The notes: generated by a model not told the origin, from the sequence alone. Shown: positions 32,178-60,578, counted from the stretch's first letter. The stretch is 64,000 bases of DNA from a virus (IMGVR_UViG_3300025141_000030); one strand, 5' to 3'. Numbers and translations: made by a program.

Positions 32178-32606
32178 ATGAAAGATTGGATACCTCCAAA
32201 ATCTCCACACGGCCTGATCCAGGAAGATTTATGGCCAGACCCGTGGAAAATTTTAGTTGCCTGCCTGCTCTTAAATCTAACGACTCGAAAGCAGGTTGAC
32301 AAGGTAATTGATGGGCTTTTTGAACGATATCCAGCTCCCAGAAGCCTTGCCACTGCGCAAGAGGAAGATCTCCATGGCATGCTTCGCTCGCTAGGTATGT
32401 GGCGTAAGCGTGCTAAGACATTGATCCGGTTTTCTAATGAATTTTTAGAAGCAGACTGGACAACCGCAAAGGACCTTTATGGTTGCGGGAAGTATGCTGA
32501 CGACGCGTGGCATATTTTTTGCGTGGGAGACTGGCGGCAGGTTGCGCCCAGTGATCACGCCCTAAACGATTATCATAATTTTTTAAAGGATGAATTAGAT
32601 GCCTGA
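32178..32606 (+). CDS. MBD4-like HhH-GPD DNA glycosylase (stand-alone catalytic domain)
   Basis: 'W.PP.SP..LIQE.L..DPWK.L.A...LN.T', 'LG....RAKT...FS.E.L...W', HhH 'LYGCGKYADD', 'IFC...W.QV.P.DH.LN.Y...L' follow the MBD4 glycosylase domain end to end; no Fe-S cysteines. Confidence 0.85.
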   Translation: MKDWIPPKSPHGLIQEDLWPDPWKILVACLLLNLTTRKQVDKVIDGLFERYPAPRSLATAQEEDLHGMLRSLGMWRKRAKTLIRFSNEFLEADWTTAKDLYGCGKYADDAWHIFCVGDWRQVAPSDHALNDYHNFLKDELDA

Positions 32607-33408
32607 GGGTCCCGAGTGTCGTCAAATCGGTATCCAGCTCGCGAAGAGGGTCTCGAATAGAAAGCTGGTCGATATTAAGATACTGAGCGGCCGCTATGAG
32701 AAGCACGGCCCACCCACTGGCTTTGACAAGATAATGGAGTGGACTCCGATTGGAATTCAAGGGGCCGGGGTACACGGTAAGTTCTTATTCTTTCTATTGG
32801 ACGCCGAGTGGAGCATTTGGTCTACGTTAGGAATGACAGGTTCATGGACAAATGAGAAGAATGAGCTGCACAGTCGCATTGAATTTGTCTTAAATGACGG
32901 ATCAATATTTTTTACTGATTCTAGAAATTTTGGGACCCTTAAGTTTGTGCGGGGAAAACAGCAACTTATTGACAAGCTGGAGTCCTTAGGCCCAGATCTT
33001 CTTGCTGAGGAGATTGATGACTTTAAATTTGCTGAGCATCTCATGAGAAAAAAGACAAAGACAATCGCTCAGGCACTTATGGATCAGGGCGTTGTGTCTG
33101 GTATCGGCAACTATGTAAAAGCTGAAGCGCTATACAATGCTAAGATATCGCCTCATCGCTTAGTGTCAGATTTAGATATACATGAGATGTCTGCACTAAA
33201 TACGTCAATTCGAAAGGTCCTAGTTGAGAGCTTTGAGTCTGGCGGTGCAACAATTAAAACTTATGCTGACATGAACGGTAAAATAGGAGAGTTCAGTCAG
33301 CGATTTGCCGTGTATGGACAGCGAAGCGATCCGCTCGGCAATGATGTTGTCAAGGAAAAAACAAAGGATGGTAGGATGACACATTGGGTGCCGTCCATCC
33401 AGAGATAA
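32599..33408 (+). CDS. Fpg/Nei family DNA glycosylase/AP lyase, zincless-finger type
   Basis: N-terminal catalytic 'MPEGPE', 'GKFL', 'LGMTG', 'D.RNFG', 'LGPD', H2TH 'LMDQ..VSGIGN...AE.L', C-terminal 'GRMTHW.P..Q' without CxxC. Confidence 0.92.
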   Translation: MPEGPECRQIGIQLAKRVSNRKLVDIKILSGRYEKHGPPTGFDKIMEWTPIGIQGAGVHGKFLFFLLDAEWSIWSTLGMTGSWTNEKNELHSRIEFVLNDGSIFFTDSRNFGTLKFVRGKQQLIDKLESLGPDLLAEEIDDFKFAEHLMRKKTKTIAQALMDQGVVSGIGNYVKAEALYNAKISPHRLVSDLDIHEMSALNTSIRKVLVESFESGGATIKTYADMNGKIGEFSQRFAVYGQRSDPLGNDVVKEKTKDGRMTHWVPSIQR

Positions 33409-33420
33409 AAAGGAGAAAAA

Positions 33421-33648
33421 ATGGCATATAAATTGAGTGATAATGTTTTACGTAGGATTGTTCAGGTGATGCAGGAGGGCCTGCTGACAGGAACCGATAT
33501 TACCGATCACATGAGGATGATTCGACTTGAGGAAAATGTTGATGATACGACCCAGCTTGTTTTAACTGATGAGTACAAGGGGATTGTGGAGAATCAGCAT
33601 GAGACAATGCTTCATGAGATTGAGAATATTAAGACGTCGGAAAACTAA
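33421..33648 (+). CDS. Hypothetical protein
   Basis: 75 aa, AGGAG RBS, stop/start overlap with the next gene. Confidence 0.7.
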   Translation: MAYKLSDNVLRRIVQVMQEGLLTGTDITDHMRMIRLEENVDDTTQLVLTDEYKGIVENQHETMLHEIENIKTSEN

Positions 33649-34025
33649 TGAGTGAGGACAGGCTTAATGACCTCTTTGAGATGAGGATTAATTTTATGGA
33701 GGCAATTAAAAAGAGCCCTGTTAATGGGGCACCCCCCTGGCCGCTGGATCTTTCCACAAAGGAGCACCAGCAGTATGTCAGGGATATTGCACTTCGTGGT
33801 GTGGAGGAGATGTTTGAGGCACTCCAGCACCTCAAGAATTGGAAGCCCCATCGCCAGACATCAGTCACTGATTTTGACAAGGATGAGTTTTTGGAAGAGA
33901 TAGTTGACGCCTTTAATTACTTTTTTGAGCTGATTCTACTGGCAGGTTTTACGGCTGATGATTTTTTTGAGATGTATGTTAAGAAGGACAAGGTGATTCA
34001 TGAAAGACTTAAAGCCGGATATTAA
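33648..34025 (+). CDS. All-alpha NTP pyrophosphatase (dimeric dUTPase/MazG-like)
   Basis: 'EEMFEAL...NWKP' and 'EEIVDAFNYF' acidic metal-binding motifs. Confidence 0.75.
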   Translation: MSEDRLNDLFEMRINFMEAIKKSPVNGAPPWPLDLSTKEHQQYVRDIALRGVEEMFEALQHLKNWKPHRQTSVTDFDKDEFLEEIVDAFNYFFELILLAGFTADDFFEMYVKKDKVIHERLKAGY

Positions 34026-34965
34026 TTCATTTAATGGACTTCAGGCCGTCCAGCGTCAGTTTTCAGACCTATTTTTTAGTTCTGACCTCCTATCCGTCGA
34101 TGAGAAGGAGGAGATGACAAGGAGCTTTGCCTTGGCACTTCACAGTGAAGTTAGCTCACTTGTGGGTGAGATTAGTTTTAAGGATCACATAAACTCTGGC
34201 CGGTCCGTAAATACGAAAAAGATCCTGTATGAAAGTGTCGACGCCTTTCGTTATATTTTAGCTATTTTGAATTTATGGGGACATAGTTCTGATGATTTTC
34301 TTAGCGCATTTCAGAATAGGGATTCATTTCTTCATACTAGATTTGAGCTGGATAAGCGAAAATGGGAGGGGCAACCTGTTATTGTTGTTGATGTGGATGA
34401 GGTGATCTGTACGTTCAGAAAGGGATTCACTGAGTGGCTGATAGATGAGAAGGGCATTGATGTCGATGTTAATTCCAAGGAATATTATCACGTTGTGCCA
34501 ATTAAAGGTTCAGGTCATTCGCCGGAGGGCCTTTTTGAGGAGTTTATCGATTCAGGTCATTTAAGGGACCTAGACATCATCTCTGAGACTGTCGGCGTTT
34601 TAAATCAGCTTAAGCTAATGGGATTTTGGATTCACCTGCTGACTGCTCGTCCAGATAAAAACCTGCAGTGCCTCTATGACACTTACTACTGGCTGGAGAG
34701 GTCAGGTTTAAACTTTGATCGAGTTTCATTTTCACCTGAAAAAATGATCTGGCTTACAAAGACAGAATACTTTGAAAGCGAGTCTGTCGTTTGTGCCATT
34801 GATGATTCTGTGAAACACACCATGGAGTATGCAAAGCACGGTGTTAAAGTTGCATCACCTAAGATGTCATACAATAAGGAGCTTCGAAATCAGGAGAATG
34901 TGACAATTTACAAGACATCTCAAGAGTTGCTTGATACAATAACACAGTTATCGGGAATGAGATAG
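34000..34965 (+). CDS. MazG-like domain fused to a HAD 5'(3')-deoxyribonucleotidase
   Basis: N-terminal 'LHSEVSSL...FK.H' and 'YESVDAFRY'; C-terminal HAD motifs 'VDVDEVI', 'LLTAR', 'K', 'IDDS'. Confidence 0.7.
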   Translation: MKDLKPDINSFNGLQAVQRQFSDLFFSSDLLSVDEKEEMTRSFALALHSEVSSLVGEISFKDHINSGRSVNTKKILYESVDAFRYILAILNLWGHSSDDFLSAFQNRDSFLHTRFELDKRKWEGQPVIVVDVDEVICTFRKGFTEWLIDEKGIDVDVNSKEYYHVVPIKGSGHSPEGLFEEFIDSGHLRDLDIISETVGVLNQLKLMGFWIHLLTARPDKNLQCLYDTYYWLERSGLNFDRVSFSPEKMIWLTKTEYFESESVVCAIDDSVKHTMEYAKHGVKVASPKMSYNKELRNQENVTIYKTSQELLDTITQLSGMR

Positions 34966-35380: not shown

Positions 35381-35818
35381 TTGAAAGTTTACATTGCATC
35401 CCCATTTTTTAACCCCAAGCAGATTGATCAGGTCGAATATATTAAGGAGGCCCTCACCAAGTTGGGATATGAGTATTTTTCACCCAAGGATTATTTTGTT
35501 CTGGATCCTAATGCTACCGCCGAGGATCGAAAGAGGATCTTCGACGTGAATGTCGAGAAGATAGAGTGGGCAGATTTTGTCCTGTGTAATACAGAGGCCA
35601 AGGATCTTGGCACTATCTGGGAGGCTGGCTTTTCTCACGGTATTGGCAAGCCTGTCGTATTTTTTGCTGAGGGACTGCCGGATGGTAAGTTTAATGTCAT
35701 GCTCTCAGAGGCAGGAGTGTCAGTCAACACTTCTAGGGAGCAGCTTTATTCTTATCTTCTTGACTGTCGTGAGCAGGATTTTCTAATTAACATTCCATAC
35801 ACGGGGCAGACACAGTAA
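35381..35818 (+). CDS. Nucleoside 2-deoxyribosyltransferase / nucleotide N-hydrolase family protein (NDT/DNPH1/MilB-like)
   Basis: 'VYIASPFF', 'FSP', 'IF..N...I..AD', 'DLGTIWEAG', 'KPVV', 'NVML'; TTG start after GGAG. Confidence 0.85.
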   Translation: MKVYIASPFFNPKQIDQVEYIKEALTKLGYEYFSPKDYFVLDPNATAEDRKRIFDVNVEKIEWADFVLCNTEAKDLGTIWEAGFSHGIGKPVVFFAEGLPDGKFNVMLSEAGVSVNTSREQLYSYLLDCREQDFLINIPYTGQTQ

Positions 35819-36834
35819 TGATGTACAATAAACTAGAGTATGTTTGGATAGACGGCGGCATGCCGTGGGGAATTAGGTCTAAGATAAAGGTCGTGCCTGG
35901 TTTCGATCCTACTTTAGATGATGCCCCAACGTGGAGTTTTGACGGCTCTTCGACCCACCAGGCCACGGGTTCGGACTCTGACTGTATTTTAAAGCCAGTG
36001 AGAACGTATCCTCATCCCTATGCAGAGGATTCACTTATCGTTTTGTGCGAAGTGTTGACAGCACTGGGAGAGCCTCATGTTTCTAATCGAAGGACTGCGT
36101 TCTTAGATGTACTGGAAAAATATCGGGACGATGAGCCTTGGTTTGGGTTTGAGCAGGAGTACTCTATAATTCAAAATAATAGGCCTCTTGGATTTCCAGA
36201 CTTTGGCTTTCCCAGTCCTCAGGGAATCTACTACTGTTCAGTTGGCGGCGATCGATCTTTCGGTCGGCACATCGCTAACGCTCACCTAGATGCATGTCTC
36301 ATGGCGGGAATAAACATTTGTGGCACTAATGCCGAGGTTGCCCCGGGCCAGTGGGAGTTTCAGATCGGGGGTCCTAACATTGATGCTGATGTTGTGTGCG
36401 ACGATATGTGGGTGGCTCGATACCTGCTCCTTTACACGGCAGAGGAAGGCGGACTCACGGTTACTTTTGAACCTAAGTGTGTGCCTGGGGACTGGAATGG
36501 TGCCGGATGTCACACTAATTTTTCTACTAGTAAAATGCGTGAGCCCGGTGGCATGAAATACATAGAGGCCGCCTGTAACGCACTATCGGCCAGGACTAAG
36601 GAGCACCTAAGTAACTATGGAGATGATATTGAACTTCGACTGACAGGCGATCATGAGACCTGTTCATATCGAGAGTTTAAGTGGGGAGTCGCTGATCGGA
36701 CTGCTTCGATTAGGATTCCGCGACAGGCTGCGTTGGATGGAATGGGATATCTTGAGGATCGTCGCCCTAATGCTAATTGTGATCCTTATATTGTTGCCCG
36801 GTTAATGATTAAAACTGTGTGTGACGAGTTATAA
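35818..36834 (+). CDS. glnII: Glutamine synthetase type II
   Basis: 'EYVWIDG', 'RSK', 'WSFDGSST.QA.G..SD', 'PWFG.EQEY', 'YYC.VG', 'NAEV.PGQWEFQ.G', 'GDWNGAGCH.NFST', 'RLTG.HET', 'R.ASIRIPR', 'GYLEDRRP..N.DPY'. Confidence 0.95.
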   Translation: MMYNKLEYVWIDGGMPWGIRSKIKVVPGFDPTLDDAPTWSFDGSSTHQATGSDSDCILKPVRTYPHPYAEDSLIVLCEVLTALGEPHVSNRRTAFLDVLEKYRDDEPWFGFEQEYSIIQNNRPLGFPDFGFPSPQGIYYCSVGGDRSFGRHIANAHLDACLMAGINICGTNAEVAPGQWEFQIGGPNIDADVVCDDMWVARYLLLYTAEEGGLTVTFEPKCVPGDWNGAGCHTNFSTSKMREPGGMKYIEAACNALSARTKEHLSNYGDDIELRLTGDHETCSYREFKWGVADRTASIRIPRQAALDGMGYLEDRRPNANCDPYIVARLMIKTVCDEL

Positions 36835-36883: not shown

Positions 36884-37816
36884 ATGACAAATTGCAGCAA
36901 CGGATTTATGCACATTGGTGTAGAGCTTCTTGATTCCCCAGACATTCCATTTACAACTTTTTGGAATTGGTTTAGGCAGACGTGGATCAGTCTTCATGAT
37001 GAAGAGTACGACCACACTAATCCAGAGCATATTAAGGCATGCCATGATGTCGCCAACAGAAGGGCACTTCCTACTCCTATGGAGGCGACCACCTTTCAGT
37101 TTAAGGTGACCGGCCTGTCGAGGGTAGCTCTTGCACAGATTACCCGGGGTCGTGTTGGATGGGCCTATAACGTTGAGTCACAGATGCCCCAGCACATTCG
37201 GCATTCTGTGACCGTCCCTAGGAACATCTACGAGCATCCTGAGTTTGGTGAGAGGGCAAGGAATTTGACTAGCCAACTGCAGGGACTTTATGATGAGATG
37301 TACGATGCTGGTATTCCGCCACAGGACTGTCGCTACATGACAATGCACGGCCAACAGACTAGCATGGTTTTTCATGTTAACTACGCTGCCCTTTTGGGCT
37401 ATTTTGCTCGTCGATGTGAAAATGGCCTGACTGATGAACTGAATTTAGTCGGCAGGATGATGCGGCATGCCCTGATCACCACTCACCTCAATTCAGATGG
37501 GACAGACAAAATTCCTGGATCTGGCTGGTCATTTTTAATTGGTAAGCTAGAGGCAATGGGAGGTGATAAGGCTTGCCTTAATAACGACCTTGTATTCGGA
37601 AATACGGGCAGGTCCCCCGCAGCGGGTGCCTGGGTTCCTAACTTACTTGATGGAACTTGTGATTATGACTTCTCTAAGTCTGCCTGGTACTACGAGCTCT
37701 GCGAGCTTCCTGAGCATCTCCTCTTCCCCGGCGAGCAGGAGATGATTAACGATTTTAAGTCTGTAGGATTTATTGGTCGACTCCAAAAATTGGACTCGAC
37801 TGCCAACAATGGCTAA
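36884..37816 (+). CDS. Divergent ThyX-fold (flavin-dependent thymidylate synthase-like) protein
   Basis: 'TPME.T.F.F.V.GLSR....QITRGR........ESQ', 'Y..M...GIP.QD.RY', 'VN...L..Y..RR.'; the RHR motif reads RGR. Confidence 0.75.
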   Translation: MTNCSNGFMHIGVELLDSPDIPFTTFWNWFRQTWISLHDEEYDHTNPEHIKACHDVANRRALPTPMEATTFQFKVTGLSRVALAQITRGRVGWAYNVESQMPQHIRHSVTVPRNIYEHPEFGERARNLTSQLQGLYDEMYDAGIPPQDCRYMTMHGQQTSMVFHVNYAALLGYFARRCENGLTDELNLVGRMMRHALITTHLNSDGTDKIPGSGWSFLIGKLEAMGGDKACLNNDLVFGNTGRSPAAGAWVPNLLDGTCDYDFSKSAWYYELCELPEHLLFPGEQEMINDFKSVGFIGRLQKLDSTANNG

Positions 37817-38099
37817 GAAAAAGCCAGCACATAAGAAAGCTGAACCGGAGACACAGTGCGGTGTTACAATTGGACAGGTCGTGTGGTGCACACTTTGTAC
37901 CGGTGCTGTAGGTCATGGTAGGATTGTTACTGTTCACCCCTTGAATAAGGAGGGTCCTGCCATGACCATTTATGACGAAATATCTGGTGCCTATCGTGTT
38001 GGCCTGATTGAGACTATAACTCCCGGCCGGCCGAAGAAGGATCAGATTTTAAAATTTATGACTGGCCTTGAAAAGAAGTGTTGCGAGGCGAAAAAGTAG
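37809..38099 (+). CDS. Hypothetical protein
   Basis: ATG 37809 overlaps the ThyX-like stop; 'GQVVW' beta-rich SH3-like pattern. Confidence 0.5.
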   Translation: MAKKKPAHKKAEPETQCGVTIGQVVWCTLCTGAVGHGRIVTVHPLNKEGPAMTIYDEISGAYRVGLIETITPGRPKKDQILKFMTGLEKKCCEAKK

Positions 38100-38665
38100 A
38101 GAAGATGCGGGAAAAGCAGTGGGTAATAATTTTTGACGGTCCTGACGGCTGCGGCAAAACTAACATTGCCCAGGCTCTTTCGCAGGCCTTAGGCATTCCC
38201 TACTTTAAAAATACTGACGAACACAGGTATTTCAGGAGCGACCCTGACTATTTTATCCACGCAATTCGATACGTGGACACATATTTTACCTCCTATCTTG
38301 AGACTACAAACAGCTCCGTAATATTAGATAGGGCATGGCCGTCGGAGTGGATTTACTCTAAGGCGATGGGTAGGCGGACAGACGAGAATGTCCTGTTGGA
38401 CCTTGATAAAAGGCACGCTAAATTAGGGACAATTATAATCAGTCCCTTTAGGACCGACTATAAAAACGTTGATGAGCAGTACGATGAGGTAAAACGTCGA
38501 CTGCCACAAATTGATAAACTGTACGAGGAGTTTGCCAAGTGGTCCAGGTGTCACGTTCTAAGAATAAACGTTGACAACGAGGACCTCCAGCACCAGCTTC
38601 ACGTAATTTCAGATTTTCTGCAAATTACAGGTAACAGCGCTGATAAATTCTATTATATTAGATAA
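38078..38665 (+). CDS. dNMP (thymidylate-like) kinase
   Basis: P-loop 'FDGPDGCGKT', 'ILDRAWPSEWIY'; start may be ATG 38105. Confidence 0.8.
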   Translation: MLRGEKVEKMREKQWVIIFDGPDGCGKTNIAQALSQALGIPYFKNTDEHRYFRSDPDYFIHAIRYVDTYFTSYLETTNSSVILDRAWPSEWIYSKAMGRRTDENVLLDLDKRHAKLGTIIISPFRTDYKNVDEQYDEVKRRLPQIDKLYEEFAKWSRCHVLRINVDNEDLQHQLHVISDFLQITGNSADKFYYIR

Positions 38666-60008: not shown

Positions 60009-60578
60009 ATGAGCCCAAGAGCGAATCCTGAGCTGGTCATTTTTACGGGACCCATGTTTAGCTCGAAGACGACTAGGCTTTTAGACATCTTGGATAGGTC
60101 TACCTATCAGAAAAAGAAGTCAATTTTATTTAAGGCCAGCATGGACAATAGGTATTCTAGGTCCGCCGTCTGCACCCATTCGGGTGTTAAGATGGAGGGC
60201 ATTGCTATTGATTCCGGATCTTCGCTGCTGGAATTCCTATCCCAGTCAGATGAGGTCTATGACACCATCGCCGTCGATGAGGCATTTATGATCGAGGGTG
60301 TGGCTGAGGTTCTTGTTTGGTTGTTTAAGAGGGGAGTTAACATTTATGTGTCATCGCTAGCACTTTCATATAGCGTTAGTGTTTTTGATGAGATGAGTGT
60401 TTTGTTACCGTGGGCAACAAGGGTTGAGGTCTGCACCGCAGTTTGTACAAAGTGTGGGAGTGACGCGTTTTATACCCATAAGAAATGTGACGATGGGAAA
60501 GTGATCGCCGTGGGCGGTGATGATATGTACGAGCCTAGGTGTTGGAAGCACCATCTTATTAGTGAGCAGGATGATTAA
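60009..60578 (+). CDS. tdk: Thymidine kinase (TK1 type)
   Basis: 'GPMFSSKTT', 'D.RY', 'VDEAF', Zn site 'AVCTKCG', 'VGG.D.YEPRC..H'. Confidence 0.92.
   Translation: MSPRANPELVIFTGPMFSSKTTRLLDILDRSTYQKKKSILFKASMDNRYSRSAVCTHSGVKMEGIAIDSGSSLLEFLSQSDEVYDTIAVDEAFMIEGVAEVLVWLFKRGVNIYVSSLALSYSVSVFDEMSVLLPWATRVEVCTAVCTKCGSDAFYTHKKCDDGKVIAVGGDDMYEPRCWKHHLISEQDD

Follow-up and report, generated by a model that had tools for sequence, protein, structure and literature searches.

A virus-only ThyX-fold protein family with a rewired active site, encoded in a phage nucleotide-pool cassette, as a possible synthase of an unusual deoxyuridylate

What does a phage make with a ThyX-fold enzyme that has lost the residues completing methyl transfer and kept those that bind and activate dUMP? 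The question arises from one gene in a 64,000-nucleotide stretch of viral DNA, hereafter the window, which is part of a large myovirus-like phage encoding a T4-type baseplate and tail tube, a family A polymerase, gp32, RecA/UvsX, DnaB, ribonucleotide reductase and ClpP. The gene starts with ATG and has a Shine-Dalgarno-like site (AAGGAA) on its 5′ side:

36884..37816, + strand: ThyX-like protein, 310 aa, with a Thy1 fold core at about residues 8–228 and a conserved family-specific C-terminal region at about residues 200–310

Genes of this family carry automatic "thymidylate synthase ThyX" labels, which are probably wrong. To our knowledge, the characterised phage synthases of modified-pyrimidine dNMPs (hm-dCMP, hm-dUMP and m5-dCMP) are all ThyA homologues. 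If borne out, a modified DNA pyrimidine made by a synthase of the ThyX type, in place of the ThyA type, would be a first; the sole ThyX-fold precedent put forward, gp130 of Bacillus phage SP-15, is itself a proposal.

Thy1 (PF02511) was the sole Pfam family matched by the ThyX-like protein (residues 45–195, E 2e-19, 70.5 bits against a cut-off of 24.8), and the Pfam scan gave no match to the ThyA-type Thymidylat_synt domain (PF00303). An AlphaFold2 model computed from an alignment of 73 homologues reached a mean pLDDT of 95. Its best structural matches in Foldseek were all ThyX (E about 1e-8), and VIA gave Z 14.8 and an rmsd of 2.7–2.8 Å over 188–203 residues to the ThyX structures of H. pylori (3N3Y) and T. 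maritima (1O26). On this model, the predicted product has the ThyX fold, in common with canonical ThyX/FDTS (PF02511, TIGR02170; T. maritima TM0449 and the H. pylori enzyme) at Z 14–15. A search of the ESM Atlas returned generic Thy1 clusters only. PolB (PDB 4P5A/4P5B), a ThyX-like UMP/dUMP C5-methylase of Streptomyces polyoxin biosynthesis, fell within the range of ordinary ThyX matches (4P5B, Z 14.0). It offers a likeness in that the ThyX fold has been recruited beyond housekeeping dTMP synthesis, but it is a secondary-metabolism enzyme with 18–19% identity to the phage protein and no such C-terminal extension. Against the thyX equivalog TIGR02170, the ThyX-like protein scored 51.1 bits, below the cut-off of 87.9, versus 166.5 bits for the canonical ThyX that a related phage (L029) encodes as its paralogue.

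The fold being that of ThyX, the active site was read residue by residue. A sequence-only reading of the window had described rewired ThyX motifs, and each of them was located where it had been placed in the 310-aa frame: LPTPMEA at residues 62–68, RGR at 88–90 followed after eight residues by S99, SQMP at 99–102, QDCRY at 147–151, NYAAL at 166–170 and ARRC at 175–178. The motifs that mark the protein along its whole length are RGR, SQMP, PPQDCRY, HGQQT, RRCENGLTDELN, VFGNTGR, DFSKSAWY and LLFPGE. A profile alignment with T. maritima and H. pylori ThyX placed LPTPMEA on H53..H59, RGR on R78-H79-R80, SQMP on S88-G89-R90-Y91, and QDCRY, NYAAL and ARRC on R147, N163/R165 and R174, respectively. 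The canonical enzymes and the family share the framework SR...LAQ.TR.R...S and ...D.RY...R...E, including the motif serine and the arginines for phosphate binding and uracil activation. In the window protein, the arginines that bind and activate dUMP (R78, R147 and R174) are present as R88, R150 and R177, and Q75 as Q85. The ThyX signature RHR-X7-8-S reads R88-G89-R90-X8-S99, the S-x-R-Y loop that carries R90 and Y91 reads SQMP, and N-x-R is replaced by N-x-A. A column census found the positions aligned to H79, R165, N169 and H178 all replaced; from the structural literature we take these four to be FAD ligands.

The folate-stacking histidine (H53) is Leu62 in the window protein and leucine in 122 of 130 family members. 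This replacement carries little weight and is not distinctive, because leucine is also common there in other Thy1 proteins (L 45 and H 17 of 117). The rewiring described from sequence is thus real for RGR, SQMP and N-x-A, and the H53-to-Leu change alone does not set the protein apart. The accompanying claim, that a ThyX-fold protein had kept its nucleotide-binding residues, agrees with the Thy1 match, the structural matches to ThyX and the retention of the motif serine and the R78, R147 and R174 equivalents.

The lost and kept residues have distinct roles in the characterised enzyme. In T. maritima ThyX, R174 activates dUMP through N3, and S88, R90 and Y91 help with attack on the flavin carbinolamine and with water loss; S88A, R90A and Y91A mutants lose most of the methylene-transfer rate (PMC8316439). 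On this basis, the phage protein would still bind and activate a deoxyuridylate-type nucleotide, the equivalents of R174, R78, R147, Q75 and S88 having been kept, and its one-carbon transfer or reduction step would be changed, R90 and Y91 having given way to Met-Pro or to small residues.

These substitutions are fixed in a family rather than peculiar to one phage. A word-indexed search returned 150 proteins at E ≤0.001, with JGI, ENA, Logan and Tara assemblies as their sources and contigs of up to 241 kb; among the 120 matches listed of the 150, identity was 48–87%, and most proteins were about 308 aa long. An exhaustive profile search found 26 clusters (50% identity) at E ≤1e-30, beyond which lay a long tail of ordinary Thy1. 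Across 130 family members, the histidine position of RHR is glycine in 120, and the motif serine is followed by Q in 128, M at the R90 position in 129 and P at the Y91 position in all 130. At the corresponding columns, H stands in 60, R in 79 and Y in 37 of the 117 other Thy1 representatives. This substitution pattern is far beyond chance. The closest ThyX sequences, of the Bacillus phage PBC1 and Clostridium phage phiCP39-O type, read LAQLTRHR...NVQSQRY where the family reads LAQITRGR...NVESQMP. In deep branches, down to about 23% identity, R80, T87, R88, R150, Y151, R177, E185 and N187 are invariant and S99 and Q85 are kept in at least 90%; the R90 and Y91 positions hold small residues there, and the second arginine of RxR is often lost. 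No branch of the family has the R90/Y91 pair.

The extra C-terminal region noticed in the sequence-only reading was borne out as some 110 conserved residues with the near-invariant motifs C.N.D.VFGNTGR, DFxKSAWYxEL and LLFxGExEM. In a quick maximum-likelihood search (IQ-TREE), all extension-bearing proteins formed one clade (stem 1.08 substitutions per site, SH-aLRT 100), and the canonical ThyX paralogues that these phages also encode lay outside it. Compared with the 88%-identical copy in the nearest locus (L001), dN was 0.086 with synonymous sites saturated, a pattern indicative of strong purifying selection on the gene.

A protein that has shed several catalytic and cofactor residues might be no enzyme at all. 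Decay to a pseudogene was rejected, given the intact frame, the low dN with saturated dS and the many invariant residues. A non-catalytic ThyX-fold protein, such as a regulator that binds nucleotides or a subunit poisoning the ThyX tetramer of the host, would fit those losses, and ThyX active sites are assembled from several subunits. We nevertheless regard this explanation as very improbable: the substrate-binding arginines and motif serine are invariant, many new invariant polar residues have appeared, and the gene is under strong purifying selection in tight operon-like linkage to enzymes.

The family was sought in cultured and cellular genomes. A tblastn search of 50,697 phage records with two family members returned only canonical ThyX at 24–39% identity, with query coverage of at most 60% that never included the C-terminal region. 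No family member was found in 185,579 prokaryote species (one genome each), and hence no cellular or prophage copies. Being absent from these prokaryote species and from the deposited phage genomes, the family is known only from uncultured viruses, whose genomes span 58 kb to over 300 kb. Homology and gene order place the ThyX-like gene in an uncharacterised ThyX-fold subfamily, restricted to viruses, within a conserved nucleotide-pool cassette.

Phages that carry this gene often carry an ordinary ThyX as well. In eight of 10 related large-phage records, the ThyX-like protein was accompanied by a second Thy1 gene (E 1e-36 to 1e-50), and S-x-R-Y was kept in all four of these paralogues that were read. 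The two records with no canonical ThyX are fragments, estimated as 12% and 28% complete, and no ThyA (PF00303) was found in any of the 10. One record has a canonical-type ThyX followed by a canonical thymidylate kinase and, 10 kb away, the ThyX-like gene followed by a kinase of its own. Since an ordinary S-x-R-Y ThyX is present in eight of the 10 records, the ThyX-like gene is probably a second, neofunctionalised paralogue. The 64-kb window itself contains no canonical ThyX. From canonical ThyX, then, the family differs in its residues (H79 to G/Q, R90 to M, Y91 to P, and H53, R165, N169 and H178 replaced) as well as in its extension of about 110 aa, its sub-cut-off score, its separate clade and its coexistence with the canonical gene in the same genomes. 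The suggestion made from sequence that the protein may not carry out CH2-THF-dependent dUMP methylation gains from the TIGR02170 score, the loss of R90/Y91 and this coexistence, and an ordinary CH2-THF-dependent dTMP synthase appears unlikely.

Two of the canonical-type paralogues have departures of their own. One (L030:1417-2190) has KYQ for RHR and, ahead of an intact SGRY, about 17 inserted residues; in a second (L031), RHR has become KHR. Even among S-x-R-Y proteins, then, the RHR triplet can vary.

Smaller phages present a different picture. In these, including complete genomes of about 58 kb, the ThyX-like gene is the sole Thy1-family gene and ThyA is also absent. This keeps alive the explanation that the protein does convert dUMP to dTMP, as a genuine thymidylate synthase whose active site is unconventional, in a cassette that serves dTTP supply and salvage. 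On that account, residues of the C-terminal extension would replace R90/Y91, or a different methylene donor or reductant would be used. The retained equivalents of R78, R147, R174 and S88 would suit such an enzyme. Its TIGR02170 score below the cut-off, the loss of R90/Y91 in all branches and the canonical ThyX alongside it in eight of the 10 large-phage records, with a second TMK in one, argue against it. We consider this explanation improbable, and the neighbouring genes bear on it further.

The ThyX-like gene lies in a co-oriented block whose order is HhH-GPD glycosylase, Fpg/Nei, MazG-like, MazG-HAD (NT5C) fusion, NDT, type II glutamine synthetase (GSII), ThyX-like and P-loop kinase. The features around it in the window are:

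32178..33408, + strand: two DNA glycosylase genes, HhH-GPD/Nth-like (142 aa) and Fpg/Nei (269 aa); Pfam HhH-GPD, H2TH and Fapy_DNA_glyco, TIGR01083 nth E 2e-12
33648..34025, + strand: stand-alone MazG-like nucleoside triphosphate pyrophosphohydrolase; PHROG 12184 E 1e-19, Pfam dUTPase_2 E 1e-4
34000..34965, + strand: fusion of a MazG-like all-alpha NTP pyrophosphatase with a HAD (NT5C-like) 5′-deoxynucleotidase; weak Pfam NT5C and dUTPase_2, PHROG 420/415
35381..35818, + strand: NDT-family protein, transferase type; PF05014 E 1e-16, nucleophile Glu81, Asp at E-6, N-x-M
35818..36834, + strand: type II glutamine synthetase; NF041605 GlnII 446 bits against a cut-off of 500, Pfam Gln-synt_C and Gln-synt_N
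37773..38099, + strand: 108-aa ORF overlapping the 3′ end of the ThyX-like gene and the GTG start of the kinase; no family
38078..38665, + strand: P-loop kinase, thymidylate/dNMP kinase-like (FDGPDGCGKT); PHROG 761 "thymidylate kinase" E 9e-11, conserved downstream partner
60009..60578, + strand: thymidine kinase (TK), TK1 type; Pfam TK E 2e-36

To see which of these neighbours are constant, the window was compared with 50 viral-contig loci from all branches (to about 23% identity), a partner being counted within 4 kb of the ThyX-like gene. An NDT-family gene was present in 48 of the 51 loci, a thymidylate-kinase-like P-loop kinase in 46 and a 5′-nucleotidase in 46, often with overlapping stop and start codons between cassette genes. 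The kinase of the window matches the Pfam dNK, TMK and CMK P-loops weakly, and a deep-branch counterpart (L038:8963-9463) passes PF02223 (Thymidylate_kin). The best PDB sequence match of the window NDT was the N-deoxyribosyltransferase 6EVS (E 3e-15), with the nucleophile Glu, the Asp and N-x-M aligned. Asp and Asn residues have been cited as those that hold the 5′-OH in transferases, as opposed to dNMP hydrolases (PMC12884076), and the window NDT looks like a nucleoside transferase rather than a dNMP hydrolase.

Orthologues of the MazG-HAD fusion lie directly upstream of the ThyX-like gene in 13 loci. In other branches, an HD (YfbR-like) 5′-deoxynucleotidase takes the place of HAD. One of these branches (L049:8972-9901, also L046-L058) has this enzyme and a trimeric dUTPase domain joined in a single ORF directly 3′ of the ThyX-like gene, a non-homologous counterpart of the fusion in the window. 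Because HAD and HD, and MazG and dUTPase, replace each other with no homology between them, what is kept would be the function, from dNTP to dNMP to deoxynucleoside. The stand-alone MazG-like gene occurs in 13 related loci, within 4 kb in 10 of them.

Other neighbours are less constant. A near-complete GSII sits between NDT and the ThyX-like gene in two of the 51 loci, the window and its 88%-identical relative L001. It was ruled out as a core partner and is a lineage-specific insertion, probably an auxiliary metabolic gene rather than a cassette member; the link to glutamine contemplated in the sequence-only reading is accordingly unsupported. The glycosylases are loosely tied to the cassette, with Fpg in nine and HhH in two related loci besides the window, at variable distance. 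TK lies 5.6–9.7 kb downstream of the ThyX-like gene in five related loci and could supply dTMP or dUMP from nucleosides. The 108-aa ORF had no Pfam or PHROG match and no phmmer match in the first 28 related loci. Unassigned to any family and unmatched in related loci, it is questionable as a gene; it may be lineage-specific or spurious, and the true start of the kinase may differ.

All parts of this cassette also fit ordinary dTTP supply, from dUTP through dUMP and dTMP to dTDP with nucleoside salvage, and dUTPase/MazG, a TMK-like kinase and, in large phages, TK are classic neighbours of the dTMP pathway. A thymidylate synthase is served poorly in one respect, since a nucleotidase fused to the dNTPase would destroy its substrate dUMP. 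The near-constant company of NDT, nucleotidase and kinase, together with a normal ThyX as the usual condition in related phages, suggests that an unusual DNA pyrimidine rather than ordinary thymidylate is probably made.

We tentatively favour, at a little under even confidence, a ThyX-like protein that is a neofunctionalised ThyX paralogue and a synthase of a non-thymine 5-substituted deoxyuridylate. A dUMP-type substrate would be modified, most likely at C5, for example to 5-hydroxymethyl-dUMP or another 5-substituted dUMP. Phage DNA would take up this product once the adjacent TMK-like kinase had phosphorylated it; that the cassette has a dedicated kinase suggests a thymidylate analogue unacceptable to the host kinase. 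The fusion of dNTP pyrophosphatase with 5′-nucleotidase, together with the NDT, would shape the nucleotide pool around the synthase step, either feeding deoxyuridine/dUMP or removing and recycling a competing canonical nucleotide. A canonical ThyX and a TK in large phages point to continued use of thymine and, with it, to replacement that is partial at most, as it also is in known phages with hypermodified thymine. Because several presumed FAD-ligand positions are changed, the flavin chemistry is uncertain; it may stop short of reduction, or another one-carbon donor may be used. The fold, the fixed active-site changes, the paralogy with canonical ThyX and the cassette are observed; substrate, chemistry, any use of flavin and folate and any entry of the product into DNA are inferred. 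The wider proposition, that a widespread clade of uncultured phages makes a non-thymine 5-substituted deoxyuridylate at pool level through a ThyX-fold enzyme served by a kinase, a deoxyribosyltransferase and a dNTPase-nucleotidase, we hold somewhat more loosely still.

The choice of substrate deserves separate comment. A dUMP-type nucleotide is favoured over dCMP, as the uracil-activating R174 equivalent and the phosphate-binding arginine are invariant. The idea that dCMP might be the alternative substrate, raised from sequence alone, lost ground, because the R174 equivalent is an arginine in every branch.

A different chemistry on a pyrimidine nucleotide would account for some of the same observations. 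The enzyme could carry out a reduction or an oxidation, or act on dTMP, dCMP or UMP, and the outcome would be a free modified nucleoside or base, or reshaped pools, instead of a DNA precursor. A model exists in the MilA/MilB and BcmA/BcmB pairs, in each of which a thymidylate-synthase-like enzyme is joined by an N-glycosidase. The NDT-family gene, at 48 of the 51 loci and often overlapping, is the deepest conserved neighbour, and the 5′-nucleotidase is conserved as well. The folate-stacking histidine and several presumed FAD-ligand positions are altered, and Met-Pro would form a hydrophobic pocket at C5. This alternative nonetheless seems doubtful to us: a TMK-like kinase adjoins in 46 of the 51 loci, an indication that the nucleotide goes on to be phosphorylated to the di- or triphosphate level, the NDT resembles a nucleoside transferase and not a dNMP hydrolase, and dCMP fits poorly with the invariant arginine.

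The favoured reading, a pool-level synthase of a 5-substituted deoxyuridylate, has parallels in known base-replacement systems. In T4, gp56, gp42 and gp1 form such a module at pool level. Z-genome phages combine PurZ with MazZ/DatZ/DutZ and DmtZ, and their NDT-family DmtZ and dUTPase-like dNTPase serve both to eliminate the canonical nucleotide and to recover the new base by salvage (PMC12884076). The T4 and Z-genome modules follow the same logic of parts as the cassette described here, with a dNTP-hydrolysing enzyme, a synthase of the new dNMP and a dedicated kinase, and in Z-genome phages also an NDT-family enzyme. They differ in that the synthase here has the ThyX fold, not that of ThyA or PurA, and a modified base is here a prediction; DmtZ differs further in that the window NDT resembles a nucleoside transferase, not a dNMP hydrolase.

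Closest in outline is Bacillus phage SP-15, whose DNA contains a hypermodified thymine (5-dihydroxypentyluracil) and whose genome encodes two Thy1 paralogues, one of which, gp130, was proposed, not demonstrated, as a hydroxymethyl-dUMP synthase (PMC5977210). The likeness is an analogy only: a large phage in which an ordinary Thy1 gene is joined by an aberrant one, the latter lying near an NDT gene. In its genome (KT624200, L059:38730-41911), gp127 is a tandem NDT-domain protein two genes upstream of gp130, with a short-chain reductase between them, and gp90, an HD 5′-nucleotidase, lies elsewhere. The main text of the SP-15 genome paper makes no mention of a deoxyribosyltransferase (PMC5977210). 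Membership of gp130 in the family was rejected, as hhalign of the family profile against it gave a probability of 0.1 and E 0.59; it is 413 aa long and wholly lacks the RxR/S motifs. Conserved, confined to viruses and open to cloning, the ThyX-like family offers a tangible candidate for flavin-nucleotide chemistry of a new kind and for a DNA modification so far overlooked in phages that abound in the environment: its members have lost the residues completing methyl transfer and retain the dUMP-binding and dUMP-activating ones, and a kinase and pool-editing enzymes of their own are encoded alongside.

Several loci of the comparison have further features. In the 58-kb phages (L019:11297-14365), the genes after the cassette encode a choline/ethanolamine-kinase-like protein, a nucleotidyltransferase and a BCCT betaine/choline transporter, a lic-like trio that is unusual for a phage. 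In another locus (L003:6802-8577), the genes immediately upstream of the cassette encode a Volactin-family actin-like protein and an N6/N4 DNA methyltransferase. The NDT gene varies in form, with a GIY-YIG homing-endonuclease domain fused to it, or in frame before it, at L007:12189-13367, and an NDT-matching ORF of similar length to that one at L014:13052-14194. At L028:8916-10516, an NDT gene immediately precedes a different Thy1 protein that has no S-x-R-Y and falls outside the ThyX-like clade in the tree, and the pairing of NDT with Thy1 may thus extend past the ThyX-like family.
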